Made by a program: the position numbers and the translations under genes. Positions 887-24,618 of a stretch of DNA of 64,000 nt are shown here, in pieces. The notes beneath the pieces are model-generated. The model ran no database searches. It was not told where the DNA came from and saw only the letters and a list, made by a program, of their open reading frames with translations. This DNA is from an uncultured bacterium (GTDB taxonomy: Bacteria > Acidobacteriota > HRBIN11 > JAKEFK01). The stretch is from the NCBI GenBank assembly GCA_963777505.1, contig CAVZQN010000004.1:416001-480000 (forward strand). The letters run 5' to 3'. How positions within the stretch are numbered: position 1 is the first letter of the stretch; each line of letters starts with the position of its first letter.

Positions 887-902
887 TGCAAAGAATGAGC
901 CA
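887..902 (-). promoter_or_regulatory. sigma-54 -24/-12 promoter upstream of the AspT-family gene
   Basis: Minus strand TGGCTCATTCTTTGCA, GG-N10-GC spacing; very close to the ATG. Confidence 0.55.
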
Positions 903-954
903 GAACAAGGCGTTCCTTCTGCGACAATCAAGGCGACCATGAATCAGGTTCCAA

Positions 955-990
955 CTCCGTAATTACGGAGCACAATACGCTATTCCGTAG
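955..990. promoter_or_regulatory. Double-box candidate enhancer (UAS) motif, copy 1
   Basis: CTCCG-taatta-CGGAG caca ATACG-ctattc-CGTAG; same layout at 8143, 17818 and 24527. Confidence 0.7.
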
Positions 991-1031
991 ATTTGCTCCG
1001 AGGATACCTCGAGGGGCTGTGTATCTTTCGC

Positions 1032-1047
1032 AGGCATAAATCTTGCC
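1032..1047 (+). promoter_or_regulatory. sigma-54 -24/-12 promoter upstream of the VIT-like gene
   Basis: AGGCATAAATCTTGCC, GG-N10-GC. Confidence 0.55.
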
Positions 1048-1064
1048 GTAGTAAACTCAGTTCA

Positions 1065-1742
1065 ATGAGCGAAAAGCATTCATTTTGGATCAACGCGGCA
1101 ACGATTTCCGGAAGACTGGGTCCCGTAGGCCGTCTCAACGAAATCCTCTTTGGCTTGATTATGGTGCTGACATTTACTTGTTCAATCAGTGCCGCAACAG
1201 CCGGTCGCGAAGAGGTTTCTACAATCTTATGGTCTGCCCTCGGTTGCAATGTTGCCTGGGGTCTTGTGGATTCGTTCATGTATCTGTTTTCTGTTTTGCT
1301 CGAAAGAGGAGAGACGTTTAGCAGTATTCGAAGCATTCGAAATGCAACCACAGAGTCGAGTGCAAACGAAGCAGTGAAAGACGCAATGTCTCCCTTTTTA
1401 TCGCAGATCTTAAAGAAAGAACACCTGACCCATCTCAGCAGCGAAATAAAGAGTTTGCCCGAACCCCCGTTGAAGACTTTTTTAACATGGCGCGATTTTC
1501 GTTACGCTGCAGCAATTTTTCTTTTGGTTTTCTTATCAACGTTCCCTGTTACAATCCCTTTCATCTTTATCAAAGAAGTTCCGATTGCAATACGTGTTTC
1601 TAATGGAATTGCATTGCTTTCGCTTTTTCTTACCGGTGTATATTTGGCTAAGCAAACAGGAAGACAAAAGTTAATATTTGGACTTTCCTTTGCATTCCTC
1701 GGAGCAGTATTAGTAAGCATTACAATGGCGCTAGGCGGATGA
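1065..1742 (+). CDS. VIT1/CCC1-like membrane protein
   Basis: EILFGLIMVLTFT...ALGCNVAWGLVD motif and several TM helices; likely start MSEKH at 1065. Confidence 0.7.
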   Translation: MSEKHSFWINAATISGRLGPVGRLNEILFGLIMVLTFTCSISAATAGREEVSTILWSALGCNVAWGLVDSFMYLFSVLLERGETFSSIRSIRNATTESSANEAVKDAMSPFLSQILKKEHLTHLSSEIKSLPEPPLKTFLTWRDFRYAAAIFLLVFLSTFPVTIPFIFIKEVPIAIRVSNGIALLSLFLTGVYLAKQTGRQKLIFGLSFAFLGAVLVSITMALGG

Positions 1743-2353
1743 AAAATATTCGACCCTTACTTGTATTCTGTGTAGCTTTGATTTTGCCCATTTCAATCTA
1801 TGGGGAAGAAATAAACTCATGGGAATTTGCTGCAATAACCAACCTTTACATGCTTCCCGATGTTACATATTTGAATCCGGTAATTTCAGCAGACAAAAGT
1901 TTGTTACATTTGGAAGCAAGATACAACTATGAGGATTTGGAAACCGGATCTATCTTTGTTGGCTATAACTTTCAAACCGGAACTTCACTTGAATTCAGTT
2001 TTACGCCGATTATCGGTGGGGTATTTGGGAATTCAAACGGAATCGCTCCTGGATTTTCATTTGAGTTGAACTACGGAAATTTGAGCATCTCCAGCGAAGG
2101 GGAATACTTTTTCAGTTCAGACGAAAAAGAATCCAATTTCTTCTACAGTTGGTCAGAAATTACTTATTCTCCTGCTGATTGGATTTGGTTTGGTGTGGCA
2201 GGACAACGCACACGTGCTTACGAAACGGATTTGGAAATCCAACGTGGTCTTCTTCTGGGATTCGGTAAAGAAAATATTTCTGTAACCGGTTATGTGATGA
2301 ATCTAGGCTGGGATGATCCATTCGGAATGATAAGCGTGGAATACAGTTTTTGA
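1739..2353 (+). CDS. Exported, probable outer-membrane beta-barrel protein
   Basis: Signal peptide, alternating aromatic beta-strands, C-terminal ..EYSF; ATGA overlap with the upstream gene. Confidence 0.65.
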   Translation: MKNIRPLLVFCVALILPISIYGEEINSWEFAAITNLYMLPDVTYLNPVISADKSLLHLEARYNYEDLETGSIFVGYNFQTGTSLEFSFTPIIGGVFGNSNGIAPGFSFELNYGNLSISSEGEYFFSSDEKESNFFYSWSEITYSPADWIWFGVAGQRTRAYETDLEIQRGLLLGFGKENISVTGYVMNLGWDDPFGMISVEYSF

Positions 2354-2365
2354 TTGGGTGAATCA

Positions 2366-2516
2366 TAGCCCACGGCGTAAGCCGGGGGTAAAAGGATTGA
2401 TGTACGAACCAGATCGATTCAAGCGGGCGAAAGACTATTGCTATGAAACTCTTACGCTCGCTTTTACGGGCTAAATCATTACATGCATACTTACCCCCGG
2501 CTTACGCCGAGGGCTA
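2366..2516. repeat. REP/REPIN-like inverted-repeat element between convergent genes
   Basis: TAGCCCACGGCGTAAGCCGGGGGTAA (2366-2391) and its reverse complement at 2491-2516 match 25/26; inner imperfect IR. Confidence 0.75.
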
Positions 2517-2525
2517 GAAACAAAA

Positions 2526-3173
2526 TTATTTTCTCTGTACGTACAAACTGATAAGGCGGGCTACCATCACCGCTAAATAAAGTTGTCCTGCAACTGCTTC
2601 AACAACAGCAACCGAGCGAGCGACATCGCTGACTGGAACGATATCACCATAACCAAGCGTTGCCAGAGTTACAAAACTAAAGTAGATCGCGTTTGGGATT
2701 TGAAAATTACCATTTGTTACGCCTTCCACCAGTAAAGACCCGGGCGAAAATCTTTCGAGAATCCAATAAAAATGCCCTAAGAAAATACCGGCCAATAAAT
2801 ATGCACTGAGTGCGGCATAGATGTGTTCACTGTCCACTTCTTTAGCTTGTAAAGTGAATCGTAGTGCAGAAACGGCAGCGAGTAATGCAACCACCGTTCC
2901 GATTGTCGACGTACCTAAGGAAATTCTCAATTCGATCCAATTACCGCTAAGTTGAACCAGCAAAATCAGAAAAAGAATAACTAAAAGCAGTTTTCTCGCG
3001 AGTCCTGAAGTAATCGGTAAAATTCCCGCGAGTAAATTAAAAGCAAACAGGAATGGTAGAGCACGCTCGATTCGCAAGGCAGAAAATAAAGGGACTGCAA
3101 CGATAGAACACAAGAGCGAGAAGAAGAGGGTTCTATAGCGATGGTTTAAATATGCATTGATCAGCGCATTCAT
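2526..3173 (-). CDS. Potassium channel family protein (Ion_trans_2)
   Basis: Selectivity filter YFSFVTLATLGYGDIVP plus N-terminal TM helices. Confidence 0.85.
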   Translation of the reverse strand: MNALINAYLNHRYRTLFFSLLCSIVAVPLFSALRIERALPFLFAFNLLAGILPITSGLARKLLLVILFLILLVQLSGNWIELRISLGTSTIGTVVALLAAVSALRFTLQAKEVDSEHIYAALSAYLLAGIFLGHFYWILERFSPGSLLVEGVTNGNFQIPNAIYFSFVTLATLGYGDIVPVSDVARSVAVVEAVAGQLYLAVMVARLISLYVQRK

Positions 3174-3207
3174 TGTGAACGTTTACGATCTTAATCGTAC
3201 TTTTGGT

Positions 3208-3687
3208 TTATTGCGCTGCTACGACTTCGTATCCGCCAGCTACTTGTCGATAATATGTATCTCCGCATAGCTGAAATGATTTTCCATTGTAGTTCTGCAC
3301 CACACATCCTGCCGGAAGTTGAGTGACAACTGCGCCAAATGGTGCAGGTACGACTTGATAAACCACGGAAGTACCATCGAATACTTCTGCTAAATAGATA
3401 TTGTTCTCGTAGTAATAGCGGCTACCTTTGACCATCACGGGTACTGCGCTTGAAGGTGCATATTCCAAAATTGTACCGATCGGAATTGCGGGTTCAACCG
3501 GAGTCGTTCCAGCCCATCCACTATAATCAGAATAGTAGCCTCCAACCACCACTGTTCCGTAACCACCGTAGTTTGCTGCTTGTGAGCCTGCTAAGTTTCC
3601 CGAACGCATTTGACGCACACCGGCAAACAATCCATGAGTCATGCTGAACAAAATCACGATAAAAAACAAACGTTTTAGCTGAATCAT
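3208..3687 (-). CDS. DUF6515-like exported protein
   Basis: Signal peptide, Gly/Tyr-rich linker, PIGTIL..P, YQVVPAPFGAVVTQLPAGC..YYR..YEVV repeats. Confidence 0.65.
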   Translation of the reverse strand: MIQLKRLFFIVILFSMTHGLFAGVRQMRSGNLAGSQAANYGGYGTVVVGGYYSDYSGWAGTTPVEPAIPIGTILEYAPSSAVPVMVKGSRYYYENNIYLAEVFDGTSVVYQVVPAPFGAVVTQLPAGCVVQNYNGKSFQLCGDTYYRQVAGGYEVVAAQ

Positions 3688-3698
3688 TTTGAACCCTC

Positions 3699-4466
3699 CT
3701 ATGGATTGTTGGATGTTTGTGTCTGTTGTGAGCCAACTCTTTCAAGAATTGGAATCCGCACGTAACCATCTGGAATTACAGCATCGAATGCATTCTTTTT
3801 TAGTTCCGGTTTCAAATTCCATTTGCTGAAAGTAATTCTATAAAAAGAAATCCCTTTGTCTGCTTTATATTTCATTTCTAATTTGCAAGGAAGCGAATCT
3901 TTATCGTTAATCCATAGCTGCCAATCAACGGAGGGGTTTGTATAGCTCAGGTGACTGCAAGATGAGCCGTCAATAACTTCTTTGCCTGTAAACCCGCCCT
4001 TTGTCTGCTCATCCATAAATGCGTCATAGGGAGAGCTGTAAAGGACATCTGACATTGGGAGATCCAGGTTCAAACGTTGTGCGAGCATATCCAAGGTTTC
4101 ATCAATTGTTGAAGGCATTTCGTGTTGAACGTAAATTCGTTTTTCGCGGGAAATTCCTGTCAGAAGTTTGCCATCATACCAGAATTCAAAATCTCGATCG
4201 CCTTTGTATTTCGTCCAGAAGCCATTCGGTCTCAGAACCATCACATCGCGTGTTACATTCAATTGGACTTTCTGTCCGTTTGGTTTCACACGGTCATGAA
4301 ATTCGATCGTACTGAAACTAAATGACGGAGCCTGCGCGAGTTTGAGGCTCATCGCTTTCAGAATGGTCTTTCCTTTAGCATCATCGGAAGTCTGTGATGG
4401 TGCAGCGCCAACGGCAAGCACAATGACTATAGATAGCAGTGGAATCAAATTCAGTACTCTTTTCAA
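3699..4466 (-). CDS. DUF2092 domain periplasmic protein
   Basis: Signal peptide; LRPNGF..FWYDGK, PSTIDE, VDWQLWI..DSLPCK, FSKWNL motifs; paralog at 23176. Confidence 0.8.
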   Translation of the reverse strand: MKRVLNLIPLLSIVIVLAVGAAPSQTSDDAKGKTILKAMSLKLAQAPSFSFSTIEFHDRVKPNGQKVQLNVTRDVMVLRPNGFWTKYKGDRDFEFWYDGKLLTGISREKRIYVQHEMPSTIDETLDMLAQRLNLDLPMSDVLYSSPYDAFMDEQTKGGFTGKEVIDGSSCSHLSYTNPSVDWQLWINDKDSLPCKLEMKYKADKGISFYRITFSKWNLKPELKKNAFDAVIPDGYVRIPILERVGSQQTQTSNNP

Positions 4467-4475
4467 AACTTACTC

Positions 4476-7067: not shown

Positions 7068-7973
7068 TTAATTGCTTTCAATGAAAGTGCGAATATCTTT
7101 CGCAACTTCAGCTGGGAGTTCCCATTGAACAGTATGACCAGCACCTGGATACGATCTAAACTGAGCAGATTGAATTCCTGCGCGCAATCGATCCTGATCA
7201 GCTTTAACGAAAACCTGATCCTGTTCACCCCAGAGTATTAATGTTGGTGTGCTGATACTTGCCAACCGGCTGCTGTTATCTTCAGATAAGACTAACTTCA
7301 TATCCGCTTTCCACACATTCGGTGGTGTTGCGGCACGTTCGTAATCCGATTTGGTTCGCATCACATCAGGAATCGGTAAAATTGTGGTCGTTTCGTTCCA
7401 TTTCGCCAACACTGCCGGATCGGAAAGACCTTTTTGAGTTTGTACGGCTCCATATAAACGGTCATATTTCTCATTCTCAATTCCTTTGTCCGATGAAGAA
7501 ATCAAAATTAATTTCTGTAATCGCGATGGATGATCAACGGCAATGCGCTGAGCGATAAAGCTTCCCATGGAATGACCGACAATTGTAGCGGTATCGATCT
7601 TTAGAGAATCCATAAACGCAATCACATCACTTTCATAATCTTCGACAGTGAAGCAGCATTCCGGATTGCTTGATTGTCCATGACCACGAAGATCCATCGC
7701 AAATACACGGTAAGTGTCCAACAGTTCAGGACCCACAAGATACCAATCCCGGCTTGAACTTCCCGGACCATGAATGAAGATGATTGCTTTTCCATCCTGC
7801 ACTCCGACATCGTGATACTTCAGAACCACTCCAGTTTTTAGGTTCACATCTTTCTTGGCATACTCATTTTTCCAACTATTTTCGATAGGACCGTAGCCTG
7901 CTATCATTCCGCCTGTTGCCGCACAACCGCAGCAAAAAAGTGTTACACAAATTAGTATTGCTAGAAGTCTCAT
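7068..7973 (-). CDS. Alpha/beta hydrolase, probable lipoprotein
   Basis: Lipobox-like CCGC, nucleophile GHSMG, WGEQD and GAGH catalytic motifs. Confidence 0.85.
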   Translation of the reverse strand: MRLLAILICVTLFCCGCAATGGMIAGYGPIENSWKNEYAKKDVNLKTGVVLKYHDVGVQDGKAIIFIHGPGSSSRDWYLVGPELLDTYRVFAMDLRGHGQSSNPECCFTVEDYESDVIAFMDSLKIDTATIVGHSMGSFIAQRIAVDHPSRLQKLILISSSDKGIENEKYDRLYGAVQTQKGLSDPAVLAKWNETTTILPIPDVMRTKSDYERAATPPNVWKADMKLVLSEDNSSRLASISTPTLILWGEQDQVFVKADQDRLRAGIQSAQFRSYPGAGHTVQWELPAEVAKDIRTFIESN

Positions 7974-8027: not shown

Positions 8028-8043
8028 TGCAAATCAAGAGCCA
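8028..8043 (-). promoter_or_regulatory. sigma-54 -24/-12 promoter upstream of the hydrolase
   Basis: Minus strand TGGCTCTTGATTTGCA, GG-N10-GC. Confidence 0.65.
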
Positions 8044-8142
8044 GATTCAGTAGAGTTTTAATAAATAAGCTAAGCTCCATGAGAGCAGTAAGTTACAATG
8101 AACTCCTAATAATTTGAACTGAAGGTTGTCAATGATAAAAAA

Positions 8143-8178
8143 CCACGAAATTGAGTAGGAGACTCCGGTATTTCGGAG
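8143..8178. promoter_or_regulatory. Double-box candidate enhancer motif, copy 2
   Basis: CCACG-aaattg-AGTAG gaga CTCCG-gtattt-CGGAG, about 100 bp from the promoter at 8043. Confidence 0.7.
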
Positions 8179-8206: not shown

Positions 8207-10804
8207 ATGAACCGGAAAGCAATTCTTTTTGCGCTGCTTGCGGCTACATTGCTATATCGTGGATCTTTTTTCTTTGAAATTTTTGCACGCAACAGTATTT
8301 TCGCCGGAATTCAATGGTCCATTAAGAACCAGACTCTTGTTGCGAAAAAAATAAAACAGACGGATCCATTTGGACGTCCTACGGCTGCAGGTTGGGCGGG
8401 CATTCAGGTTGGAGACCAGATCGTTGAGATCAAAGAATCGAATGGAAATTCGTTTCCTATTCGAAGTCTGAATGATTTTGGTGATGCGATCAGAAAGGTA
8501 CGCGACACCCATGCGCCATCATTCGTTGTTCTTCGAAAAAATCCTTCTGGCATAGATGAACGGATCGAGTTGGTAATCAAATCGCGGCCGGCTGGTGTGC
8601 AAGATCTGAAAGCGTCTTTGCTCACAATTTTCTGGACATCACTTTTACCTCTGGTAGCAATTGTCACTGCCTTTTTCATCGGGTTCAGCAAGCCACAAGA
8701 GAATCATGCATTTCTTGCCAGCCTTTTATTTTTAAGTTTTTCAGCAATCATAACAATCGATATTTATTTGCTTCCGCCAGGCTTACGCGAATTCAGCCGT
8801 TTGTACGAAACGGCATGCATCATTTTCCTGCCTTATCTATTCATGAGATTTTTTCTTCTGTTTCCATCCTCATCATGGATTGAACGCAAATTCCCATGGC
8901 TTAAAACCGCCTTTCTTATATTTACTACACTCTTGTTGATCGTAAGGCTTTTCTCTGAATATTTCCTTCACACTTCGTTTGAACGCTATGCGGAATTTCA
9001 GGAAGCAATCGCGCCGGTCTGGCCAGTATTGAATGTTGGGTGGTTCTCAATGCTGGGAATCGGGGTCATTTCATTGTTAATGAATACTTTTCGCCGGCAG
9101 AGTTTAGATGAAAGGCGGAAGATGCTGATTCTTTTATCAGGTGTTGCCTTGGGAGTTCTTCTTCCCGGTGCGCTGATTCTGTTCATGATTCGCACTGGCT
9201 CTAATTCCATTTTCTTGTTTAGTGCGATCGCTCTATGTGTCACTGCATTTCCTGCGGCCTTTGCGTATGTTGTGATCCGGCATCGTGTGCTTGGAATTCA
9301 GTTGCTATTGCGAAGAGGATTGCAATACCTGCTGATCTCCCGCACATTTTGGATTCTTGAGGCGATTATAATTTTCCTGATTTTGTATTTTGTTGTACTG
9401 CCTGTGTTGATGCCGCTGGTTCCAGGGATTCCCGCTTTTTTGCGTCTGATTCTAGTTGGTGCGCTGACATTGTTGGCCTACTACGGAATTCGTAGGATCA
9501 ATCGGCCGATTATGGAATCGCTCGACAAACGTTTCTTCCGTCAAGCGTACGATGCCCGCGAAATTTTAACCGATCTGAGTCATGCTGTCGGACGTTTCGC
9601 AGCGAGCCCGGCTCAACTTCTTGAACTTGTGACTGACAAAATTTCCCGCTCTTTGCATCCCGATCCTGTAGCAGTTTTCCTCAAGGGTTACGATATTGCT
9701 CCGGATGAAGAAGGAAAAGCCCGCCTTTACCGGATGAAAGAAGATCGTTACTTCTGTGTCTGGATTCAAAAAGGAACACAGACTCCTGCATCTTCCGAAT
9801 ACAAATTGCCTCAAGACGCATTTATTTCGCAACAACTTGAAAAACTTCAAGAACCACAAGCCATGGAAGTTGATCTGGATGATTCCGATCTCCATACAAG
9901 GCTCCTTTTACCTTTATATATGGAAGGAAGATCTATTGGATTCTTCAGCCTTGGAGAAAAACTTTCAGAAGAGCCTTACTCGTCTGAAGATAAAAATTTG
10001 CTTTTAACGGTTGCACAACAAACAGCCATTGCTTTGCATTACTCGAAGCTCATCATGGAAGTGGCGGATCAAGAAAAAACGAAGCGTGAAATTGAAATCG
10101 CAAAACAGGTGCAAGCCCAATTGTTTCCACAAATTTTTCCACCAGTTTTGAATCTTGACTACACCGGATATTGCAGAGCCGCACGAAGTATTGGTGGGGA
10201 CTATTATGACTTCTTAAATCTTGGGCATAACATTCTGGGAATCGGTCTCGGAGATATTTCAGGAAAAGGAATTTCTGCAGCTTTATTAATGTCATCACTT
10301 CAGGCACTTCTGCGCAGCAATGCGCCGGAAAAAGGAAATGCTCTTGATCATTTATTTCAAAAGATGAATGTCCTTCTTTGCAGCTCCGCTTCAAAAGGAA
10401 AGTATGCAACATTTTTTTATTGTGTTTTCGACGGCGAGCATCGATCTATTGTTTATGTAAATGCAGGACACTTACCTCCAATGGTTTTTCGCAAGAATGG
10501 TGATGTGTTGCGTTTGAAAACCGGGGGAATGGTTTTAGGCATGCTTCCGGAAGTCACTTACTCAAAGGAACAGGTTGAATTACGCAGCGGAGATGTGCTT
10601 GTAATTTTTTCAGATGGCGCTTCTGAAGCGATGAATATCAATGATGAAGAGTTCGGTGAGGAGAGACTGATTGAACTTGTAAAGCCAAACCTTGAGAAGT
10701 CATCGGTTGAGATCAAAGACTTGATTCTAGCGGGCATAGAAAAGTTTGTCGGCCACGCTGATCAACATGACGACCTCACACTTGTGGTAGCCTGTGTAAC
10801 CTAA
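8207..10804 (+). CDS. Membrane-bound SpoIIE/RsbU-type PP2C phosphatase with PDZ-like and GAF-like domains
   Basis: AGIQVGDQIVEI (PDZ), many TMs, LGEKLSEEPYSSED (GAF), IGGDYYDF, GDISGKG, FSDG, DDLT. Confidence 0.85.
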   Translation: MNRKAILFALLAATLLYRGSFFFEIFARNSIFAGIQWSIKNQTLVAKKIKQTDPFGRPTAAGWAGIQVGDQIVEIKESNGNSFPIRSLNDFGDAIRKVRDTHAPSFVVLRKNPSGIDERIELVIKSRPAGVQDLKASLLTIFWTSLLPLVAIVTAFFIGFSKPQENHAFLASLLFLSFSAIITIDIYLLPPGLREFSRLYETACIIFLPYLFMRFFLLFPSSSWIERKFPWLKTAFLIFTTLLLIVRLFSEYFLHTSFERYAEFQEAIAPVWPVLNVGWFSMLGIGVISLLMNTFRRQSLDERRKMLILLSGVALGVLLPGALILFMIRTGSNSIFLFSAIALCVTAFPAAFAYVVIRHRVLGIQLLLRRGLQYLLISRTFWILEAIIIFLILYFVVLPVLMPLVPGIPAFLRLILVGALTLLAYYGIRRINRPIMESLDKRFFRQAYDAREILTDLSHAVGRFAASPAQLLELVTDKISRSLHPDPVAVFLKGYDIAPDEEGKARLYRMKEDRYFCVWIQKGTQTPASSEYKLPQDAFISQQLEKLQEPQAMEVDLDDSDLHTRLLLPLYMEGRSIGFFSLGEKLSEEPYSSEDKNLLLTVAQQTAIALHYSKLIMEVADQEKTKREIEIAKQVQAQLFPQIFPPVLNLDYTGYCRAARSIGGDYYDFLNLGHNILGIGLGDISGKGISAALLMSSLQALLRSNAPEKGNALDHLFQKMNVLLCSSASKGKYATFFYCVFDGEHRSIVYVNAGHLPPMVFRKNGDVLRLKTGGMVLGMLPEVTYSKEQVELRSGDVLVIFSDGASEAMNINDEEFGEERLIELVKPNLEKSSVEIKDLILAGIEKFVGHADQHDDLTLVVACVT

Positions 10805-12877: not shown

Positions 12878-13381
12878 CTACTTTTTTCCTGGCGGGAAAT
12901 CTGCAAACATTTTTGCGACTGCCTTGGTGATGGTCGTCTGCATCTTCGCCAGATCGGTTTTCACAGTATCCTGAGCTGTACCTCTCCAGACCAGAGCATT
13001 TTTCGCAGAACCTACAAGATCCACTACTAAAGTGCCGACCTTAACTGGTTCGTGTTTCTTTTTCTGATCTCCCCATTCGCCCACAGAATAGCCCGCTTGA
13101 TCTGCTTTCACTTCCGTTTCTGTTGAGCCATGATAAGTCACAAATAGATCGGGAGCTTTATCGGTTTTTGTGAAGCCTTTCGCGATCAATTGTTTTTCGA
13201 TTTCTGCAATGATCATCTTGTTAACTTCTGGCCGGGTTGCTGGCGTTCCTGGTTTCCAGTTAAATGTCTTTAAGTAAGGAAAATGGATCCGTGGATCAAA
13301 TTCAACATCTACAGTTTGTCCAAAAACAATATTAGGAAACACAGCTAAGAGAAATAAAACTATCAGTTTGTACATCCTCAC
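12878..13381 (-). CDS. DUF4136 domain exported protein
   Basis: Signal peptide; YLKTFNW, IEKQLIAKGF, GTLVVDLV..LVWRGTA, AVAKMFADFPP. Confidence 0.8.
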   Translation of the reverse strand: MRMYKLIVLFLLAVFPNIVFGQTVDVEFDPRIHFPYLKTFNWKPGTPATRPEVNKMIIAEIEKQLIAKGFTKTDKAPDLFVTYHGSTETEVKADQAGYSVGEWGDQKKKHEPVKVGTLVVDLVGSAKNALVWRGTAQDTVKTDLAKMQTTITKAVAKMFADFPPGKK

Positions 13382-14902: not shown

Positions 14903-17641
14903 TTACTTTTTTACTGACTGCTCTCCGGTCACTTGTTCCCTCATGATTCGCGCCATAAGGATCTCGCGTTCAGTGTCCAGCAGATACTTAGCGTCAACAC
15001 GGCCAAAAAAATCCATCAGTGGAGCGACAAGACTAGTCCATCCGGTTTGGTGACTTGCCCCAAGCCCAGCCCCGTTGTCGCCATGAAAATATTCATAAAA
15101 TAGGATCAAATCGCGCCAATGAGGATCTTCCTGAAACTTGGATGTACCTCCATAGACCGGACGTTTTCCATTAGCATCTCTCAGGAAGATGCCTGCTAAG
15201 CGCCGCGAGATTTCCTTCGACACTTCAAACAACGTCATGTATTTGCCGGAACCAGTCGGACATTGCACTTTGAAATCGTCGCCATAAAAAGAGTAAAGGT
15301 TCACCAACGCTCGGATGATCAGAATATTCACCGGCATCCATACTGGACCACGCCAATTAGAATTTCCTCCGAACATTCCTGTATTCGATTCCGCCGGCAG
15401 ATACTGTACCTTGAACTCCTCATGTCCAACCCAAAACGTAAATGGATGATCAAGGTGGTATTTTGAAAGTGACCGAATTCCATGTGGCCCCAAGAACTCA
15501 TTTTCATCAAGTAAGTAACCAAGCACACGCTCCAGTTTTTTCTTGTTGAGAATTGACAAGAGGCGTCTTCCTTTGTATCCAATGAAACCTGTGTCCGTCG
15601 GCATCACTTGGGAGGCTAACTGTGGATGACGTTTCCGGAAAAGGTCGATCATTTCCAGCAGTTTTGGATGTTGTGTCAGGATATCCTGGTGGAATACAGT
15701 AGATGCACAAAGTGGAAGAAGACCCACCATCGATCTCACTTTCAAACGGACCGGCTGACTGTTTGGTGCCCGCAGCAGATCATAGAAGAAACCATCCTGT
15801 TCATCCCACATTTCATCGTGATTCTCACCGATGCGGTCCATTGCATAAGAAATCCAAAGGAAATGCTGTATGAACTTGAAAGCGATTTCTTCATACATCG
15901 CGTCATAATCGCTTAAAATAACTGACATCTCCAACATGCACTGGCAATAAAACGCCATCCACGCCGTACCATCCGCCTGCTCAAGCGATCCACCTGTTGG
16001 AAGTTGCGAACTACGGTCGAATACTCCAATGTTATCCAGACCAAGAAAGCCACCGGCGAAAACATTGCGGCCAGACGGATCCTTCCGGTTCACCCACCAA
16101 TTAAAATTGAGCATCAATCCCTGAAAGGATCGTTCCAGAAAGCGGATGTCTGCCCTGCCTAGCGTTTGCTCCATCTTATACAGGTAGATTGTTGCCCATG
16201 CATGAACCGGTGGATTTACATCGCTAAAGTTCCATTCGTAAGCGGGAATTTGTCCATTGGGATGGAAATAGAGACCGCGCAACATGAGCAGCAATTGCTC
16301 TTTGGCAAAATCGAAGTCGACCAATGCAAGACTGATAGTATGAAACGCAAGGTCCCATGCTGCATACCATGGGTATTCCCATTTGTCCGGCATCGAGATG
16401 ACATCCGCATTCAACATGTGAAACCATTCCGTATTGCGAACATCGCTGCGGGCAGATTCCAACAGGGGATGACTTTTGTGTTCACTTAACCACTTCTCCA
16501 GATCGAAGTAGTAGAACTGCTTGCCCCACATCATACCCGCTAGCGCCTGCCGATGGACTCGTCGTTCATCTTCAGTCAGCGATTGCGGCGTAATCCGCGT
16601 ATAAAATTCGTCTGCGTCCGCAATCCCGTTTTTAAATGCCTTCTCAAAACTGCCAAAAGGATCGCTTGCTTTCGACTTGGTCAGACGCAGACGGATCGTT
16701 TTGCTTCCACCTGCAGGCACATTAAGCACATAGTGCGCCGCAGCTTTGGTTCCAACCTTGTTGGGATTTACTGCTCCTTTCTCTCCGGAAATGATGTAGC
16801 GGTGAAATGCATCCTTTACATAAGGAGATATATTGGGCTGATTCCATAAACTCTGTGCATTACTTTCGTTTTCAGTAAATAGAAGTTCCGGCGCTTCATC
16901 GCAATACAACGAGTATTCGCCAAGCTCATGATGTGATGTGGAGATCATGCCCGGCGCCTGTTCACGAATCGACGGCTTTGGATCACCATTGCCCCAGGAC
17001 CATGTGTTCCTGAACAAAAGTGTGGGTAACACACGAAGCCGTGCGGCTTCCGGTCCACGGTTGTGAACGGTTACACGAATCAGGATGTCTTCTGGTTCTT
17101 GCTTGGTGTACTCAACGAACACGTCAAAGTAACGATTGTCATCAAATATGCCTGTATCAAGCAACTCATATTCGAACTCCTCTCGCGATCGCCGATTTTT
17201 TTCAAGAAGGTTTTGATATGGAAATTCACGCTGCGGATACTTGTATAAATACTTCATGTACGAGTGCGTAGGAGTACTATCGATGTAAAAGTAATACTCT
17301 TTGACGTCTTCACCATGGTTCCCTTCACTGTTGGTTAGACCGTAAAGGCGTTCTTTCAGAATTGGATCCTTTTCGTTCCACATCGCGAGTGAAAAACAGA
17401 GCTTTTGCTTGTCATCCGAAATTCCGCCCAATCCATCTTCACCCCATCGATATGCACGCGAGCGCGACTGCTCATGCGAGAAATAGTCCCAGGCATTGCC
17501 GTTCTCACTATAGTCTTCGCGAACTGTTCCCCACTGCCTTTCGCTAAGATAAGGACCCCATTTCTTCCAGGGGATTCCTTTCTCACGCGCATCATTTAAC
17601 CGCTTTTGTTCTACTACATCGATAGATTTTGGGTCAGCCAT
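14903..17641 (-). CDS. MGH1-like/GH63 glucosidase
   Basis: WGPYLSERQWGTVREDYS, MPDKWEYPWYAAWDLAFH, GFLGLDNIGVFDR, EYFHGDNGAGLGASHQTGWT. Confidence 0.9.
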   Translation of the reverse strand: MADPKSIDVVEQKRLNDAREKGIPWKKWGPYLSERQWGTVREDYSENGNAWDYFSHEQSRSRAYRWGEDGLGGISDDKQKLCFSLAMWNEKDPILKERLYGLTNSEGNHGEDVKEYYFYIDSTPTHSYMKYLYKYPQREFPYQNLLEKNRRSREEFEYELLDTGIFDDNRYFDVFVEYTKQEPEDILIRVTVHNRGPEAARLRVLPTLLFRNTWSWGNGDPKPSIREQAPGMISTSHHELGEYSLYCDEAPELLFTENESNAQSLWNQPNISPYVKDAFHRYIISGEKGAVNPNKVGTKAAAHYVLNVPAGGSKTIRLRLTKSKASDPFGSFEKAFKNGIADADEFYTRITPQSLTEDERRVHRQALAGMMWGKQFYYFDLEKWLSEHKSHPLLESARSDVRNTEWFHMLNADVISMPDKWEYPWYAAWDLAFHTISLALVDFDFAKEQLLLMLRGLYFHPNGQIPAYEWNFSDVNPPVHAWATIYLYKMEQTLGRADIRFLERSFQGLMLNFNWWVNRKDPSGRNVFAGGFLGLDNIGVFDRSSQLPTGGSLEQADGTAWMAFYCQCMLEMSVILSDYDAMYEEIAFKFIQHFLWISYAMDRIGENHDEMWDEQDGFFYDLLRAPNSQPVRLKVRSMVGLLPLCASTVFHQDILTQHPKLLEMIDLFRKRHPQLASQVMPTDTGFIGYKGRRLLSILNKKKLERVLGYLLDENEFLGPHGIRSLSKYHLDHPFTFWVGHEEFKVQYLPAESNTGMFGGNSNWRGPVWMPVNILIIRALVNLYSFYGDDFKVQCPTGSGKYMTLFEVSKEISRRLAGIFLRDANGKRPVYGGTSKFQEDPHWRDLILFYEYFHGDNGAGLGASHQTGWTSLVAPLMDFFGRVDAKYLLDTEREILMARIMREQVTGEQSVKK

Positions 17642-17703: not shown

Positions 17704-17719
17704 TGCAAGTCTGAGGCCA
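17704..17719 (-). promoter_or_regulatory. sigma-54 -24/-12 promoter of the glucosidase-amylase operon
   Basis: Minus strand TGGCCTCAGACTTGCA, GG-N10-GC. Confidence 0.65.
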
Positions 17720-17817
17720 GAATATGAAATGACATCAGGGAGCGTGCTAACTATTTTAATTCTAATAGCTTGGCTACTATCAAAACGCCACGAATGTATT
17801 CCGGATAATTAACTTGA

Positions 17818-17853
17818 CCACGGGATAGAGTAGCAGCCTCCGCTATTACGGAG
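17818..17853. promoter_or_regulatory. Double-box candidate enhancer motif, copy 3
   Basis: CCACG-ggatag-AGTAG cagc CTCCG-ctatta-CGGAG, between divergent sigma-54 promoters. Confidence 0.7.
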
Positions 17854-17915: not shown

Positions 17916-17931
17916 TGGCACATTAGTTGCT
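17916..17931 (+). promoter_or_regulatory. sigma-54 -24/-12 promoter
   Basis: TGGCACATTAGTTGCT, near consensus TGGCAC-N5-TTGC. Confidence 0.75.
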
Positions 17932-17949: not shown

Positions 17950-18036
17950 ATGATCTCACTAAAGCCTTCCGTCAATTGGCTTTTGATTTTTATACCCATC
18001 ACACTCGCACTTGAATACGTAAGCACACTTACGTGA
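17950..18036 (+). pseudogene. 28-codon ORF resembling the N-terminus of a Ca2+/H+ exchanger (CAX/ChaA)
   Basis: MISLKPSVNWLLIFIPITLALEYVSTLT*; CAGGAGG upstream; NWLLxFxPxxxxLE recalls the first TM of CAX proteins (recognition from memory). Confidence 0.45.
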
Positions 18037-18054
18037 TACAAATAAAAGGAAGCA

Positions 18055-21000
18055 ATGGGCTCGGGGCACAGTTCAGTAGAATTTAGTCGAACACAAGGAA
18101 TCCTTTCTGCTACAGCTCTTGGTGGAAACGTAATCCTTGGACTGGGCGTTTTTGTAGCAGGCGGGCAACTTGTACTGCAAACTGGCGGTGATGCGCCTCT
18201 TGTTTTTTGCGTTGCCGCACTCCTTTTCCTTCCATTCATTTTTAGCTGCGTTCAACGCAGTTCCGGAGCGGCATCAAGTGCCAGCTTTTATGCCGCTGCT
18301 CGCTCATCCGGCTCTTCATTACGATTGTTTTTTACAACATGGCTGATGCTCGCAGGTTATGTAACATTGGGAGCACTCCTGGCTTATGGCGCTGCATTAC
18401 GCGCAAACACTGGCCTGGAACGGGTCCTCGGCTTAGAAGTTGGGATCGAACTGGTTCTCTTTCTGATTGTTGCAATCGCTTTCGTCAAGGAGCTCTTCAC
18501 AAAAGTTGAAGGGTGGCGAAGCAGAACAATAATGTTTTGGACTTGTGCGCTTTTTCTCATGGTGCTGGCCGTTTTAGCATCTCTTGCGCGATTTCGAACG
18601 GGCGCCAGTATTCCAAAGATACAACCTCTGCAACATTGGCTAATCGGCGTTTCCATGCTGGCTTCCACTCTCTGGAGCATCGATATCGTTTTGAACTATC
18701 GCGGACAATTCAGGAATCCTAATCGCACAATTACCTTGAGTCTAATAATCATATTTGTGGGCGGAAGTCTTTTAAGTGCTCTAACGTCTGTAGAAGTCTT
18801 GCGCAATCCTTCTTTATTGATGCAAAACTGGCTCGAAGTACTTACCTGGAATGAAAGCCGCCTAGAGTTGCTGGTTCTAATTGCGGGTTTTTTGATCTGT
18901 GTTTCCGGTCTTTTGCGTGCGATGACTCGCATCACACGCCTTCTTGGATCGATGATTTTGGATGGTGCGCTGCCGAAATCAAATGATACTGGAAGAAGTC
19001 TTCAATACTATTCAGGGATATTGGTTGTTCTTCTTGCATCGTCCGCAATTTTTCTTTCAATATCGTATCTACTTCTCATTTCAGGTTTCGCGGCCCTGGT
19101 GGCTATGGTGCTTTATCTACAACCGTTGCTGAAAAAGGATCTGTCCCGAATCGTGCAGATTTCGCTTCCATTCCATCCTTTGATCCCAATGTTATCGATC
19201 GCAATGTCGATTTTCTTAATGTGGATTCTTCCCCTTCAAAATCTGTTCATACTTGGAATCTGGTTAATCGCAGGCGCAATCCTCTATTTCAGTTATGCAC
19301 GGAAAAAGATGTTACCCGCAATGCAACAAGAGCATGTATTTACCGCTCAAGGAGCCAAGCCATCGACTGAAGTATATCGAGTGTTGGCCTGTTTGAGTAA
19401 CGATGAAATAAACGAAAGTTTGGTATTGATTGGGTCCTCAATTGCTGCTTCAAAAAATGGAGAGCTTTTGGTTTTACGTATTCTGGAGACATCAGAATTT
19501 GTTCCAATGGAGTTACAACAGAGACGTGGAAAAACCGAATGGGATCGAATCCAGGATCAATTGCAAAAGCATCAATTGTCCGGGCGGGTTACAGTACCCG
19601 TTGTTCGAATGGCTCCAGATTCAATCTCAGGAATTAAAGCAACAATAAGAGAATTCGCGCCGGATTTTATTTTGGTAGAGTGGCCCGAAGAACCTGTTGA
19701 ACGAGTGCGCAAAAATCGATTGCAAAGTCTGTTGCAGTTAACTGCCCGGCCTCTTGGAATTCTAAAAGGTCAAATCAGTGAAAAGCCCAAAAAGCTGACA
19801 GTTGCATGCGGAAGCAGTGCCCACACGATTCAGGCAATACAGCTTGGAGAAGCGATTGCATCCGCAAATGAATCCACAATTGAAGCTTTGAGGATTTTCA
19901 AAAGAGCCGAATCTGATCAAATCGCAAAAGAGACAATTCAATCAGCGATCGATCAATCCGAAACAAAAATTCCTCCAAAAATAGTTGTTCATGCAGAAAA
20001 CGATCTTGAAGAAGGAATCCTGAAACAGGCAGAAACCAGCGATCTGCTTTTATTGGGAGCATCGGATGACCCAATTTCCGGACGGCCATTGCCCGATGGG
20101 CAGTCCATGGAGATCGCTCGCCAAAGAAAACAAGCCACTCTTATTGTGAAAAGCAAAGAAGAGTCAGGCAGGTTTCTGGTACGGCAGATGCTGGCTCAAT
20201 TGACAAATCGAGTGACGGCTCTAACACCGAAAGAACGATCGGAATTGTTGAGTCAATTAAGAGTTGGACTGCAAGCCCGCACAGATTTTTATTTGATGGT
20301 CGCTCTCGCAGCATCAATTGCGATTACGGGACTGATCATGAATGACGGCAGCATAGTTTTAGGAGCTATGCTCGTTTCACCATTAATGAGTCCTATTGTT
20401 GGAATTGCATGTGGAATTGCTTTAGGCAACCTTGATCTGATGCGACGTTCAAGTGCATCTACCTTTAAAGGCATGTTTCTTGTACTGGGTGTGGGCGTGC
20501 TGATGACATTTATTCTTCCAACCGGAGAGCCTACAGACCAAATTCTGTCCCGAACTCATCCCGGGATTTATGATTTGCTGGCTGCTCTTGCAGCGGGAGC
20601 TGCGGGTGCTTATTCGCTTGGCAGACGACCGGTTGCAGGCGCGCTTCCAGGAGTTGCTATGTCGCTTTCGCTGGAGCCTCCTCTTGCTACTGCCGGTTAT
20701 GGATTGAGTACTTCCCAATTTTGGATTACAGGCGGAGCGCTCTTGCTTTTCTTAACGAACCTGGCTGCGATTGTACTTTCGGGTGTTGGAGTCTATATAT
20801 TGCTCGGACTGCGTCCCCCAAAAAAATCTGGTGTATCGATTGTCGGGAAAGCGGTTGCCAGCGTGATTCTTGTTACTCTCATTCTGATTGTTCCGCTTGG
20901 ACTTGGCACTTATAGTGCGGTACAAAAGGGCCATCTTAAGTTCCAGATAGAATCGCAATTTCGAGATGCGGCTTTGCATGAACGTTTTGAACTACTGAAA

Positions 21001-21192
21001 TTGAAAATCTCAGAACATGAAAACGGTTTCTTAATTCATCCCACGGTGCTCGCATCAGAAGAAGTGACTTCAGAAAAAATTGAAAAGTTTCGAAAGGCTA
21101 TTGAACAGAAAGTAGGATCGCCGATTCAGATTGACGCAATAATCCTGCAAACAAAACGGATTGAATCCCCATCAACAAACAAGAAGGAATGA
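18055..21192 (+). CDS. Fusion protein: APC-family permease + two USP-like domains + DUF389
   Basis: About 12 N-terminal TMs ending PFHPLIPMLSI; YRVLACLSN and KKLTVACGSSAH USP-like segments; FYLMVALAASIAITGL..IVLGAMLVSPLMSPI (DUF389). Confidence 0.75.
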   Translation: MGSGHSSVEFSRTQGILSATALGGNVILGLGVFVAGGQLVLQTGGDAPLVFCVAALLFLPFIFSCVQRSSGAASSASFYAAARSSGSSLRLFFTTWLMLAGYVTLGALLAYGAALRANTGLERVLGLEVGIELVLFLIVAIAFVKELFTKVEGWRSRTIMFWTCALFLMVLAVLASLARFRTGASIPKIQPLQHWLIGVSMLASTLWSIDIVLNYRGQFRNPNRTITLSLIIIFVGGSLLSALTSVEVLRNPSLLMQNWLEVLTWNESRLELLVLIAGFLICVSGLLRAMTRITRLLGSMILDGALPKSNDTGRSLQYYSGILVVLLASSAIFLSISYLLLISGFAALVAMVLYLQPLLKKDLSRIVQISLPFHPLIPMLSIAMSIFLMWILPLQNLFILGIWLIAGAILYFSYARKKMLPAMQQEHVFTAQGAKPSTEVYRVLACLSNDEINESLVLIGSSIAASKNGELLVLRILETSEFVPMELQQRRGKTEWDRIQDQLQKHQLSGRVTVPVVRMAPDSISGIKATIREFAPDFILVEWPEEPVERVRKNRLQSLLQLTARPLGILKGQISEKPKKLTVACGSSAHTIQAIQLGEAIASANESTIEALRIFKRAESDQIAKETIQSAIDQSETKIPPKIVVHAENDLEEGILKQAETSDLLLLGASDDPISGRPLPDGQSMEIARQRKQATLIVKSKEESGRFLVRQMLAQLTNRVTALTPKERSELLSQLRVGLQARTDFYLMVALAASIAITGLIMNDGSIVLGAMLVSPLMSPIVGIACGIALGNLDLMRRSSASTFKGMFLVLGVGVLMTFILPTGEPTDQILSRTHPGIYDLLAALAAGAAGAYSLGRRPVAGALPGVAMSLSLEPPLATAGYGLSTSQFWITGGALLLFLTNLAAIVLSGVGVYILLGLRPPKKSGVSIVGKAVASVILVTLILIVPLGLGTYSAVQKGHLKFQIESQFRDAALHERFELLKLKISEHENGFLIHPTVLASEEVTSEKIEKFRKAIEQKVGSPIQIDAIILQTKRIESPSTNKKE

Positions 21193-21199
21193 CCATCAA

Positions 21200-21838
21200 A
21201 TGAAAGAAATAAACAAAATATTCCAGAACAATCAAACATGGGCTGCACAAAAGTTAAAAACCGATCCGCAATATTTTAAGAAATTATCCAAAGGACAAAA
21301 TCCAAAATTACTCTACATCGGATGTTCGGATAGCAGAGTTGCTGCAGAAGAGTTGATGGGATTGCAGCCTGGTGAAATTTTCGTTCAAAGAAATATCGCG
21401 AACCTTGTGGTGAGTACTGACAATAATCTCAATGCTGTTGTGCAATATGCCGTTGAGCATTTGAAAGTAAAACACATCATCGTTTGCGGCCATTATGATT
21501 GTGGCGGAGTGAAAGCTGCCTTACATCCCAGTGATATGGGACAACTGAATAGCTGGTTACAAACACTACGTGATGTATTCCGTTTGCATCAGGCAGAATT
21601 GAATAGCATTCAGAATGCCCGCGAGCGATTTGACAGATTAGTGGAATTGAATGTGACAGAACAATGCATCAACCTCATCAAAATTGATCACGTTCAGCGT
21701 TCCTGGTACAAAACAGGATTCCCTAAAGTTCACGGCTGGGTATTTGATGTGCGCACAGGTGTTTTGAAAGACCTGCGTATAAAGCTGGAAGAAGTATTTG
21801 GCGAGATCCGAACGATTTATGATTTAAAGCCGGTTTGA
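21200..21838 (+). CDS. can: Beta-class carbonic anhydrase
   Basis: Zn ligands IGCSDSRV and CGHYDCGG; RNIANLV; 7 bp after the fusion gene. Confidence 0.92.
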   Translation: MKEINKIFQNNQTWAAQKLKTDPQYFKKLSKGQNPKLLYIGCSDSRVAAEELMGLQPGEIFVQRNIANLVVSTDNNLNAVVQYAVEHLKVKHIIVCGHYDCGGVKAALHPSDMGQLNSWLQTLRDVFRLHQAELNSIQNARERFDRLVELNVTEQCINLIKIDHVQRSWYKTGFPKVHGWVFDVRTGVLKDLRIKLEEVFGEIRTIYDLKPV

Positions 21839-21851
21839 AAGTTTGTAGTAA

Positions 21852-21961
21852 GTTTGTAGTAAGGCACGCTGGCGAATCTGCCGAAGGCAGATGAGGCAGT
21901 GCCGTGTAGTCAGCTCACGGCACTGTCTCGCATACGCTCGACTGCGTGCCTTACTACAAAC
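21852..21961. repeat. GTAG-type REP/MITE-like structured element between convergent genes
   Basis: Perfect 18-bp terminal IR GTTTGTAGTAAGGCACGC / GCGTGCCTTACTACAAAC with inner hairpins ATCTGCCGAAGGCAGAT and CAGTGCCGTG..CACGGCACTG. Confidence 0.7.
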
Positions 21962-21976
21962 AGCCAGCGTACCTAA

Positions 21977-23116: not shown

Positions 23117-23175
23117 AACTTAACAATGATAAACTAAGATTTCGATTTACTGCAAAGAATGAGAACACTCAACAA

Positions 23176-23970
23176 ATGAAAATATTGAAGTCAATAAAAG
23201 TGAAGTTTTTGCCTGGAACATTGGTTGTTGCGATGATTTTTTGTGTCCCTTTAACTCTCATCGCTCAACAGTCTCCTGCAACTCCGCAAGCACAGACAAC
23301 CATTAATCCGATTGAACCTGTTGCACTTGAAACACTCCAACGCATGAGTGATCTTCTGAAGAACGCCACGAAAATCACTTTTACAGCAAACACAACACGC
23401 GAACAGCCAGCCACAACCGGGCAACTGCTGGAGTTTTTTTACACTTCACGCGTGTCACTGGTTCGACCAAATCTATTTCGAGTCGACGTTGAAGGAGACA
23501 TCTGGACTGCGAGCATCTGGTACGATGGAAAAAAAATAACCTTAATGGATCCAAGAACAACTTTTTATGCACAAGCGGATGCTCCACCTACAATCGATGA
23601 CACAGTAATGTTTCTTGTTGAGAAATTTCAAGCACCTTTACCCCTGGCAGTGCTTCTGATGTCTGACATATCAAAAAAAGCTGTTGAAGGGTTAAAAACC
23701 GGCTTCGAAGCCGGAGTTGTTATGGTTAATGGAATCAAGTGCCGCCAGCTTGCCTTTACAGAAGTCGAAGCTGACTGGCAACTTTGGATTGAAGATGGCC
23801 CCAATCCTCTTCCACGGAGATTATCGGTAACCTACAAAAAGATGGAAGGATCCCCTCGCGTATCGATTTCGTTTTCGGATTGGAATTTGGATGCCGTGAT
23901 TCCTGCTAATACTTTCGTTTTTAACAAGCCAGAGGGAGCTACAAAAGTGGATGTGAAGCCAGTTCAGTAA
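23176..23970 (+). CDS. DUF2092 domain periplasmic protein (second copy)
   Basis: VRPNLFR..WYDGK, APPTIDD, ADWQLWIEDGPNPLP, FSDWNL. Confidence 0.8.
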   Translation: MKILKSIKVKFLPGTLVVAMIFCVPLTLIAQQSPATPQAQTTINPIEPVALETLQRMSDLLKNATKITFTANTTREQPATTGQLLEFFYTSRVSLVRPNLFRVDVEGDIWTASIWYDGKKITLMDPRTTFYAQADAPPTIDDTVMFLVEKFQAPLPLAVLLMSDISKKAVEGLKTGFEAGVVMVNGIKCRQLAFTEVEADWQLWIEDGPNPLPRRLSVTYKKMEGSPRVSISFSDWNLDAVIPANTFVFNKPEGATKVDVKPVQ

Positions 23971-23989
23971 TCGCACATCAAAGGAGACT

Positions 23990-24465
23990 ATGAAAAAGTT
24001 ATTGTTATTTTTTTTAGCTTGTTCTTGATTGCCTTGTGTGTAATTCCGGCAGATGCGTGGGTTGCGTCTGGAGGCGCTTACAATGGTGCGGCTGTTGGTC
24101 CACGTGGCGGATCGGTTTACGGCCCGAATGGGGGTGGCGTTGGAGCACGTCCCTATGGAGGATGTTGCTCTGGAGGTTATAACGGTTATAACGTTGCAGG
24201 CCCCAGTGTTGCTACTGCTAAAGGTGGAGCAGCTCCAGCGGACGGAAGTGTTACAAAATCATCCGTGCCTGGGACAACCTTTTTCGTAGCACCGGAACCG
24301 ACTGGGCCAAAGGCCGCCATTGGTACGATTCTTTATAGCTTACCAAATGGATGCATCTCCACATTTACGAATGGTATTTCTTATTATCAGTGTGGTAACG
24401 ACTACTACCGAACTTTTTATCAGGCAGGTACGCTCGTATACGAAGTTGTTCCGAAACCGTATTGA
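23990..24465 (+). CDS. DUF6515-like exported Gly-rich protein; apparent -1 frameshift in a T8 run at 24008-24015
   Basis: AAGGAG RBS and ATG at 23990; one extra T restores MKKLLLFFFSLFLIALCVIPADA; C-terminal IGTILYSLPNGC..YYQCG..YEVV. Confidence 0.65.
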
Positions 24466-24526
24466 TACTCTTACCTTGCTTCGACATCACAATTGTTTTT
24501 CCATCCTCCGGATTATCTGGCCCCAG

Positions 24527-24562
24527 CCACGGAAATACGGAGTTTGCTACTTTATTCCGTAG
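24527..24562. promoter_or_regulatory. Double-box candidate enhancer motif, copy 4 (weaker third box at 24506)
   Basis: Minus strand CTACG-gaataa-AGTAG caaa CTCCG-tatttc-CGTGG. Confidence 0.7.
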
Positions 24563-24602
24563 GTAGATCGACCTCGTCCTCCAATTCTCGACGTGCTCGG
24601 AC

Positions 24603-24618
24603 TGGCACGAGCCTTGCC
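24603..24618 (+). promoter_or_regulatory. sigma-54 -24/-12 promoter of the serine-to-acetate operon
   Basis: TGGCACGAGCCTTGCC matches consensus TGGCACG-N4-TTGC. Confidence 0.8.

Follow-up and report, generated by a model that had tools for sequence, protein, structure and literature searches.

The stretch of DNA analysed here, referred to as the window, comprises 64,000 nucleotides from an uncultured bacterium of the phylum Acidobacteriota and corresponds to G000:C4:416001-480000, where G000 denotes an assembly of 5.23 Mb in 14 contigs with 44% GC. Four of its intergenic regions carry a 36-bp element composed of two 16-bp palindromic boxes, with the consensus CTMCGnWATWnCGKAG and an exact 20-bp period, and each copy adjoins at least one sequence resembling a -24/-12 promoter of the sigma-54 type. 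The four sites, at 955..990 (site C), 8143..8178 (site D), 17818..17853 (site E) and 24527..24562 (site F), carry the letters given in an original prediction made from the window sequence, which had further proposed that one activator, encoded elsewhere, co-controls the adjoining operons through them.

Sites, promoters and operons in the window

Promoters were scored from 0 to 7 against TGGCAC-N5-TTGCW, with its GG-N10-GC core, and six lie at the coordinates originally proposed, five with scores of 5-7 and one, at 1032..1047, with a score of 4. At site C, one box of which is the perfect palindrome CTCCGTAATTACGGAG and which reaches 41.4 bits, TGGCTCATTCTTTGCA (887..902, minus strand; 52 bp from the site) is predicted to drive the gene of an AspT/YidE-like Asp-Al_Ex transporter (2-874, minus strand), and the weaker AGGCATAAATCTTGCC (1032..1047, plus strand; 4/7; 41 bp) a VIT1-family gene (likely start 1065, end 1742) together with a 204-residue gene (1739-2353); the orthologous VIT1 promoter adjoins a site in the related genome G002. 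Site D, recovered by the matrix scan and aligned with its orthologue in a second relative, G001, lies 99 bp from TGGCTCTTGATTTGCA (8028..8043, minus strand), which would drive a string encoding an alpha/beta hydrolase (7068-7973), unknown proteins, DUF2092 (3699-4466), DUF6515 (3208-3687) and a K+ channel (2526-3173). Site E is common to two divergent promoters: TGGCCTCAGACTTGCA (17704..17719, minus strand; 98 bp), facing GH63/MGH1-like (14903-17641), GH13 (13398-14888) and DUF4136 (12878-13381) genes, and the consensus promoter TGGCACATTAGTTGCT (17916..17931, plus strand; 62 bp), facing a cation-exchanger remnant of 28 codons (17950-18036), a permease-DUF389 gene (18055-21192) and a beta-carbonic anhydrase gene (21161-21838). 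Finally, site F (37.9 bits) lies 40 bp from TGGCACGAGCCTTGCC (24603..24618, plus strand), the putative promoter of an operon for L-serine dehydratase (24707-26433, in two frames), Pta (26372-27310), PFOR (27320-30937), a DHO_dh-like protein (30934-31929) and probably AckA (32064-33251).

The six distances had originally been put, in the same order, at 53, 42, 100, 99, 63 and 41 bp, which the measured values given above correct. As for the targets, Pfam agrees with the original list for the AspT-like and VIT1 proteins, the hydrolase-DUF2092-DUF6515-K+ channel string, GH63/GH13, permease-DUF389/carbonic anhydrase and serine dehydratase-Pta-PFOR-AckA, whereas the labels 'PLC' and 'USP' have no Pfam match.

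Specificity of the element and its promoters

A matrix was built from the boxes, leaving out those of one site (C8:429509), and G000 was scanned for pairs 20 bp apart. The scan returned seven tandem sites, all of them intergenic and each beside a -24/-12 promoter: the four in the window, two upstream of it on the same contig (C4:382496 and C4:389125), and C8:429509 on another contig. Across 24 oriented boxes, C at box position 4 and G at position 13 are invariant, and the central AT occurs in 23. Box pairs in IUPAC form, with at most two mismatches per pair, likewise number seven at the 20-bp period, with no match in G000 for the reversed-pattern control; of 17 further periods between 16 and 33 bp, only that of 24 bp gave a pair, a single one and of a different motif (CTACTC..GAGTAG). 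The exact form CTCCG-N6-CGGAG occurs four times in the 5.23 Mb, always within C4:382496-433838 (51 kb), with three copies inside the window. The motif is not equally frequent in coding and non-coding DNA: 13 of 19 exact single boxes lie in the 0.53 Mb without long open reading frames and 6 in the 4.69 Mb with them, a 19-fold higher density in non-coding DNA, and 10 of the 19 fall within the seven tandem sites. Outside the window, at G000:C4:1893777-1893900, a different non-coding tandem palindrome was seen (CTACTC-N4-GAGTAG, 24-bp period, with a third copy ~85 bp off), which probably serves a different regulator as its operator.

All seven sites are accompanied, across a gap of 40-114 bp, by one or more promoters that face outward and score at least 6. 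Ten promoters adjoin these sites with scores of 4-7 (at least 5 in nine of the ten), three sites (C4:382496, C and E) having one on each side, and the site at C8:429509 is followed 95 bp downstream by a promoter with a score of 7. Across G000, 161 matches score at least 6, compared to 53 in the reversed-sequence control, and 16 are perfect, compared to one. The genome also possesses rpoN, represented by a PF04552 match (C6:164924-165397, E = 1.3e-63) within an open frame of 482 residues.

Conservation was assessed against a sample of 251 genomes of the phylum and against closer relatives, the class being represented by 13 genomes only and the family by 7; G001 belongs to the same genus as G000, and G002 to another genus of the family. 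Among 61 related genomes, the tandem pattern with at most two mismatches occurs at 7 sites in G000, 6 in G001 and 7 in G002, and the remaining 58 genomes have 0-2 matches, each with two mismatches, a frequency equal to that of the reversed control. With the period set to 19 bp, G001 (7 in total) and G002 (8 in total) each gain one further site. With at most one mismatch, the 20-bp-period pattern is found only in these three of the 251 phylum genomes, at six sites in each. An outward promoter-like element is present at 22 of 22 sites in G000, G001 and G002, 19 of which score at least 6, compared to only 16% of random positions with an element scoring at least 4. When orthologous intergenic regions were aligned, at a mean column identity of 64%, conservation was concentrated in both boxes, the promoter, the region around the start codon and a single additional short element. 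The sequence between box and promoter is otherwise unrelated from site to site, which argues against a repeat or mobile element.

A candidate activator upstream of the window

The window contains no gene with the activator domain PF00158, in keeping with the original proposal, and about 30 such genes occur in G000. Two candidate activator genes lie 41-46 kb upstream of the window on C4, the contig on which the prediction had suggested looking for an NtrC-family gene. P0002 (L001:11836-13434 = G000:C4:373836-375434, minus strand; ~41 kb) encodes a predicted GAF-AAA+-HTH protein of 532 residues, and P0001 (L001:7727-9370 = C4:369727-371370, minus strand) its predicted GAF-AAA+-HTH paralogue. The two proteins are 66% identical, possess the same C-terminal recognition helix, and match PF00158 with E = 4.5e-70 (P0002) and 3e-69 (P0001). 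The five orthologues and paralogues compared all share a Walker A sequence GETGTGKE and a GAYTGA loop. The C-terminal HTH region, putatively of the Fis type, has no Pfam HTH_8 match at E of 0.001 or below; the NCBIfam alignments to FhlA and PrdR extend to residue 522-527 of 532, and an HTH-like C-terminal sequence is kept in all orthologues. A look-up of the sensor domain in the Atlas returned generic GAF clusters only.

The distribution of P0002 follows that of the motif. Of the seven family genomes, only G000, G001 (two copies) and G002 (one copy) encode a protein that matches P0002 over its full length at more than 65% identity, the next-best match being at most 49%, and these are exactly the motif-bearing genomes of the family. 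The sensor domain of P0002 has matches in 36 of the 251 phylum genomes, with identities of at least 49% in G000, G001, G002 and G054 only (next, 37%). Gene and sites are also linked: most sites and the activator gene lie within one stretch of ~60-70 kb in each of G000, G001 and G002, the distance from the P0002-type gene to the nearest site being 7.1, 5.3 and 8.7 kb, respectively. In G000 and G001 the activator gene closes a run of co-directional genes headed by a regulon promoter, such that autoregulation by read-through would be possible; no autoregulatory site distinct from this was found close to the activator genes at up to five mismatches in C4:362000-382400.

In G054, a distant genome of another family (62% GC, 7.7 Mb), the only two tandem sites, both with a 19-bp period (control, 0), flank the activator orthologue, one ending 241 bp before its start and the other beginning 66 bp after its end. 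Over 510 residues, this orthologue shares 61% identity with P0002, and its recognition helix is identical. Both sites are accompanied by a sigma-54 promoter, one facing an orthologue of an unknown protein of ~770 residues and the other an ABM-domain protein, both of which also head regulon operons in G000-G002. The phyletic pattern, the linkage and the G054 arrangement together make the P0002 family the likely binder of the tandem sites.

Between P0001 and P0002 lies a gene (L001:9595-11760; G000:C4:371595-373760) for a GltP-type sodium:dicarboxylate symporter fused to an SBP_bac_3 domain for amino-acid binding, which has neither a sigma-54 promoter nor a tandem site. The fusion may hint at an amino-acid signal for P0001.

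Geometry and an additional conserved element

Within a site, the half-sites CTMCG and CGKAG are ~11 bp apart (centre to centre) and the box centres 19-20 bp apart. The distances from site centre to -12 element form clusters at 62, 72-76, 83-84, 94-95, 109-112, 119, 126-132, 141 and 146 bp, with two of ~250 bp, and group mainly around 62, 73, 84, 95 and 127-132 bp. A Rayleigh scan of the site-promoter distances gave a best period of ~11.25 bp, with a nominal p of ~2e-4 that counts orthologous promoters as independent and follows the scanning of several periods; helical phasing is therefore only suggestive.

A further conserved element, A[CG]TTA[GC], occurs 13-30 nucleotides upstream of the -24 box in seven of the nine regulon promoters with gaps of 87-100 bp (all nine for the looser [CG]TTA[GC]), as opposed to just 2 of 153 other sigma-54-like promoters of G000. 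In the window, it reads GCTTAG (8070..8075, minus strand) and AGTTAG (17737..17742, minus strand) on the promoter strand, in both cases 27 nucleotides upstream of the -24 box, and further copies lie at L002 ~9224-9230 and L004 ~8607-8613. The element may be the site of a bending protein or a third, weak activator contact.

Proposed mechanism and alternative explanations

We consider it highly probable, from the comparative sequence data, that the 36-bp elements are enhancers (upstream activating sequences) of one sigma-54 enhancer-binding protein (EBP), P0002. The gene switch is of a conventional kind and well supported, and co-control by one activator, as originally proposed, is backed by the enhancer distances, by conservation at orthologous promoters in two related genomes, and by the tracking of one activator family. 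Specifically, one activator dimer would bind each 16-bp palindrome, whose half-sites are one helical turn apart, and the spacing of the palindromes by about two turns would place two dimers on one face of the DNA, where they could seed the AAA+ ring. The ring would then contact sigma-54 RNA polymerase at the -24/-12 promoter and open it with ATP, and a single enhancer could serve two divergent promoters. The N-terminal GAF domain presumably keeps P0002 inactive until a signal arrives, and P0001, given the same recognition helix, may share the sites.

Several points weigh against this assignment, or against parts of it. The promoter at 1032 is weak, and the phasing statistic has the limits stated above. 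P0001 and P0002 are indistinguishable by their recognition helix, and the phyletic comparison covers the P0002 family only, G000 encoding ~28 other EBPs. Near-identical helices also occur in homologues of other phyla, namely L015, from a Pseudomonadota metagenome-assembled genome, and L016 and L017, from Methylomicrobium and Methylotuvimicrobium, which are 57-63% identical in the best segment and possess an extra inserted domain region. None of these three genomes has a tandem site at up to three mismatches, indicating that the motif cannot be predicted from the helix alone; nor did 80 loci surrounding EBP homologues of other phyla (1.53 Mb) contain a tandem site at the same threshold. The pattern is, moreover, not exclusive to this system: G109 carries two perfect tandem palindromes of the CCACGAnATnTCGTGG type with a 19-bp period (L102:8568-8602 and L103:8114-8148), one of them between a STAS gene and an HTH_17 gene, with no sigma-54 promoter within 300 bp, and these are probably operators of an unrelated regulator; G220 has a single match. 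Lastly, the physiological role discussed below is guessed from gene content.

The identical helices, and the presence of ~30 PF00158 genes, leave room for a different activator at the enhancers, whether P0001 alone, a mixed P0001/P0002 oligomer, or another of the ~28 EBPs. We nevertheless regard this as improbable, as G002 and G054 have one orthologue each, nearer to P0002 (76% and 61% full-length identity), and still retain the sites, which in G054 both flank that orthologue, and as the cluster at C4:382-441 kb has no other EBP gene. A larger departure would be that a repressor or global regulator outside the EBP class uses the palindromes as its operators and merely co-occurs with sigma-54 promoters whose true enhancers lie elsewhere. 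The G109 palindromes beside an HTH_17 gene would fit such a reading, as would the placing of site D 29 bp ahead of gene 8207, where repressor operators are typically found. However, all 22 sites lie upstream of outward sigma-54 promoters at typical enhancer distances and with apparent helical phasing, no other conserved dyad is visible between the orthologous regions apart from the short regulon-specific element, and the presence of the motif follows the EBP gene rather than another regulator, making this explanation very unlikely.

Chance matches, or remnants of mobile or hairpin elements such as the CACGGAG heptamer element, were also considered, given that many CCACGGAGTCACGGAG-type heptamer arrays in G000 are partly box-like. 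The arrays have neither the invariant central AT nor the 20-bp period, and the tandem scan recovered none of them; in addition, the flanks show no relation from one site to the next, orthologous promoters in three genomes retain the sites, and the reversed control gave no match, such that the chance of this explanation being correct appears close to negligible. An origin from a mobile element was accordingly rejected on the unrelated flanks and the specificity for the 20-bp period. As an observation in its own right, heptamer arrays of the types CCACGGAGTCACGGAG and CTCCGTGACTCCGTGG occur in ~30 copies in G000, often as inverted pairs (e.g. G000:C3:49077-49151), and resemble the box half-site.

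Regulon content and possible physiology

Beyond the operons in the window, the putative targets in G000 include: (i) an RND efflux pump with DUF4136; (ii) the exported unknown protein of ~770 residues, DUF3300, DUF2950, a SulP-STAS protein and the activator; (iii) ABM and amidohydrolase proteins, DcaP, two glutaminases and DcuA/B; and (iv) aspartase, asparaginase and a porin. Most G000 targets are common to G001 and G002, where PPK2, CHAD, a cNMP-binding T2SSE ATPase, malic enzyme, glycogen phosphorylase with PGM, and phosphoketolase are added, together with an F-type ATP synthase operon in G002. As predicted from these genes, the functions of the regulon are NH3-releasing amino-acid catabolism by asparaginase, aspartase, the two glutaminases and serine dehydratase, C4-dicarboxylate and aspartate transport, acetate fermentation by PFOR-Pta-AckA, glucan hydrolysis, ion transport with carbonic anhydrase, an RND pump and exported proteins of unknown function.

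Asparaginase II, aspartase, the Dcu carriers and Pta-AckA are anaerobically induced in Escherichia coli, and the induction of several such functions favours a reading in terms of low oxygen or energy limitation. Tentatively, and with somewhat less than even confidence, the regulon may thus shift the cell to fermentation, or to metabolism at low oxygen or limited energy. Other readings are an acid-stress response, to which NH3 release, the ATPase, the K+ channel and carbonic anhydrase could belong, and substrate induction by asparagine, glutamine or aspartate. Acidobacteriota of this kind are usually regarded as aerobes. A more far-reaching version, which we put forward as speculative and rather doubtful, is that the GAF activator is a master switch to a fermentative, energy-conserving state at low oxygen or energy, with a role like that of FNR or ArcA in enterobacteria but exerted via sigma-54, and that regulon and regulator are kept together as a supra-operonic island of ~60-70 kb. 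Such a state would run on amino-acid deamination, conversion of aspartate to fumarate with C4-dicarboxylate exchange, PFOR-Pta-AckA, phosphoketolase, glycogen breakdown and, in a relative, the F-type ATP synthase.

Several features of the target genes are recorded here. The predicted sigma-54 transcription starts in the regions 872-902 and 1032-1067 would leave leaders of ~2 nucleotides for the AspT-like gene and ~7 nucleotides for the VIT1 gene, without a Shine-Dalgarno sequence, and both transcripts would be near-leaderless if the start codons are right. No sigma-54 promoter was found for gene 8207-10804 beside site D. This gene encodes a GAF-SpoIIE phosphatase and starts 29 bp past the site; at the equivalent position in G001, a sigma-54 promoter precedes the gene of the cNMP-binding T2SSE ATPase, and in G000 this ATPase gene is located one gene further (10969-12789). 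An activator bound at site D might occlude the phosphatase gene's own promoter. The cation-exchanger remnant behind the 17916 promoter (window 17950-18054) has an intact Na_Ca_ex counterpart in G001. Many split or truncated genes were also seen, at window 24707-26433, L002:3866-7034, L001:4303-7464 and L002:2056-2390, and those affected include the serine dehydratase alpha chain (two frames), AcrB (two open reading frames), two DUF3604 genes (two pieces each) and the ~770-residue protein, which lacks an in-frame N-terminus. AcrB is also split in G001 and G002, at different places. The split genes suggest indel errors in assembly and not real decay.

These results provide a precise regulatory map for an uncultured class of Acidobacteriota, with 7-8 enhancers per genome, their promoters and target operons, and a named candidate activator. 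They link sigma-54 to central fermentative and amino-acid catabolic metabolism, as opposed to its classic roles in nitrogen metabolism, flagella and stress, and they supply a regulatory context for families of unknown function, namely the exported ~770-residue protein, DUF2092, DUF6515, DUF3300, DUF2950 and DUF4136.

Comparison with known systems

At glnAp2, the phosphorylated response regulator NtrC binds two adjacent dyad sites ~100-140 bp upstream of a GG-N10-GC promoter. The present system resembles NtrC in its two adjacent dyads for activator dimers, and presumably in oligomerisation and DNA looping, but would employ a one-component GAF sensor and a different motif, with enhancers common to divergent promoters and many of them ~62-95 bp from the -12 element. 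The best NCBIfam match of P0002 is FhlA (NF011958), with 370.7 bits over the AAA+ domain and C-terminal HTH region against an equivalog cut-off of 830; NifA (361.7; cut-off 528.85) and NorR (339.6; cut-off 476), the next nearest, likewise remain far below their equivalog cut-offs. FhlA of E. coli shares GAF-type sensing and controls an anaerobic fermentation function, whereas P0002 has a single GAF domain and 532 residues, compared to a model of 692 positions, and the targets seen include none for formate hydrogenlyase.

In the available portion of PMC7386598, AauR of Pseudomonas is described as a two-component response regulator of acidic amino-acid uptake and use, with the motif TTCGG-N4-CCGAA. 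It is a partial functional analogue, being a sigma-54 activator with a CG-cored inverted repeat and overlapping with the asparagine, aspartate and glutamine part of the regulon; on the same source, it differs in its 4-bp spacer and in having no fermentation, glucan or ion-transport targets. Regulon reconstructions of this type are routine for other phyla, judging from the part of Kazakov et al. 2015 consulted (PMC4641369). The original prediction called the regulon undescribed, and no account of the motif or regulon was found in the literature searched, from which subscription journals and supplements were excluded and some sources were represented in part only; a closely similar operator type has, however, been published for PexR of Myxococcus xanthus (PMC12754779).

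As far as the accessible text of that paper conveys, PexR is a GAF-AAA+-HTH (group III) EBP that is autoinhibited by its GAF domain and binds tandem 16-bp CACCG-n6-CGGTG palindromes upstream of sigma-54 promoters, with a regulon for peroxide defence (ahpC, katB), within the general paradigm of bacterial enhancer-binding protein, UAS and sigma-54 that the paper also sets out (PMC12754779). In G000 there are two isolated CACCG-N6-CGGTG matches, none of them tandem, and neither ahpC nor katB is found among the Pfam-annotated neighbours of the sites and activator. Tandem PexR-type repeats found in 18 of the 251 phylum genomes were set aside, as they looked like GC-rich coding sequence (e.g. stretches coding for Walker A). 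Insofar as PexR is known from the excerpted source, it is the closest characterised analogue by operator: the 5-N6-5 layout, the tandem 16-bp palindromes and the inner CCG-N6-CGG core are shared, and the candidate activator is likewise of the GAF type. The elements described here differ in the outer bases (CTMCG/CGKAG), in an AT-rich spacer with a nearly invariant central AT, in having two boxes per site compared to three or more for PexR, and in a metabolic regulon in place of peroxide defence. Most of the difference between the motif and the PexR operator, as reported there, falls on one symmetric position, and the two could therefore serve to investigate how these activators alter their DNA-binding specificity.

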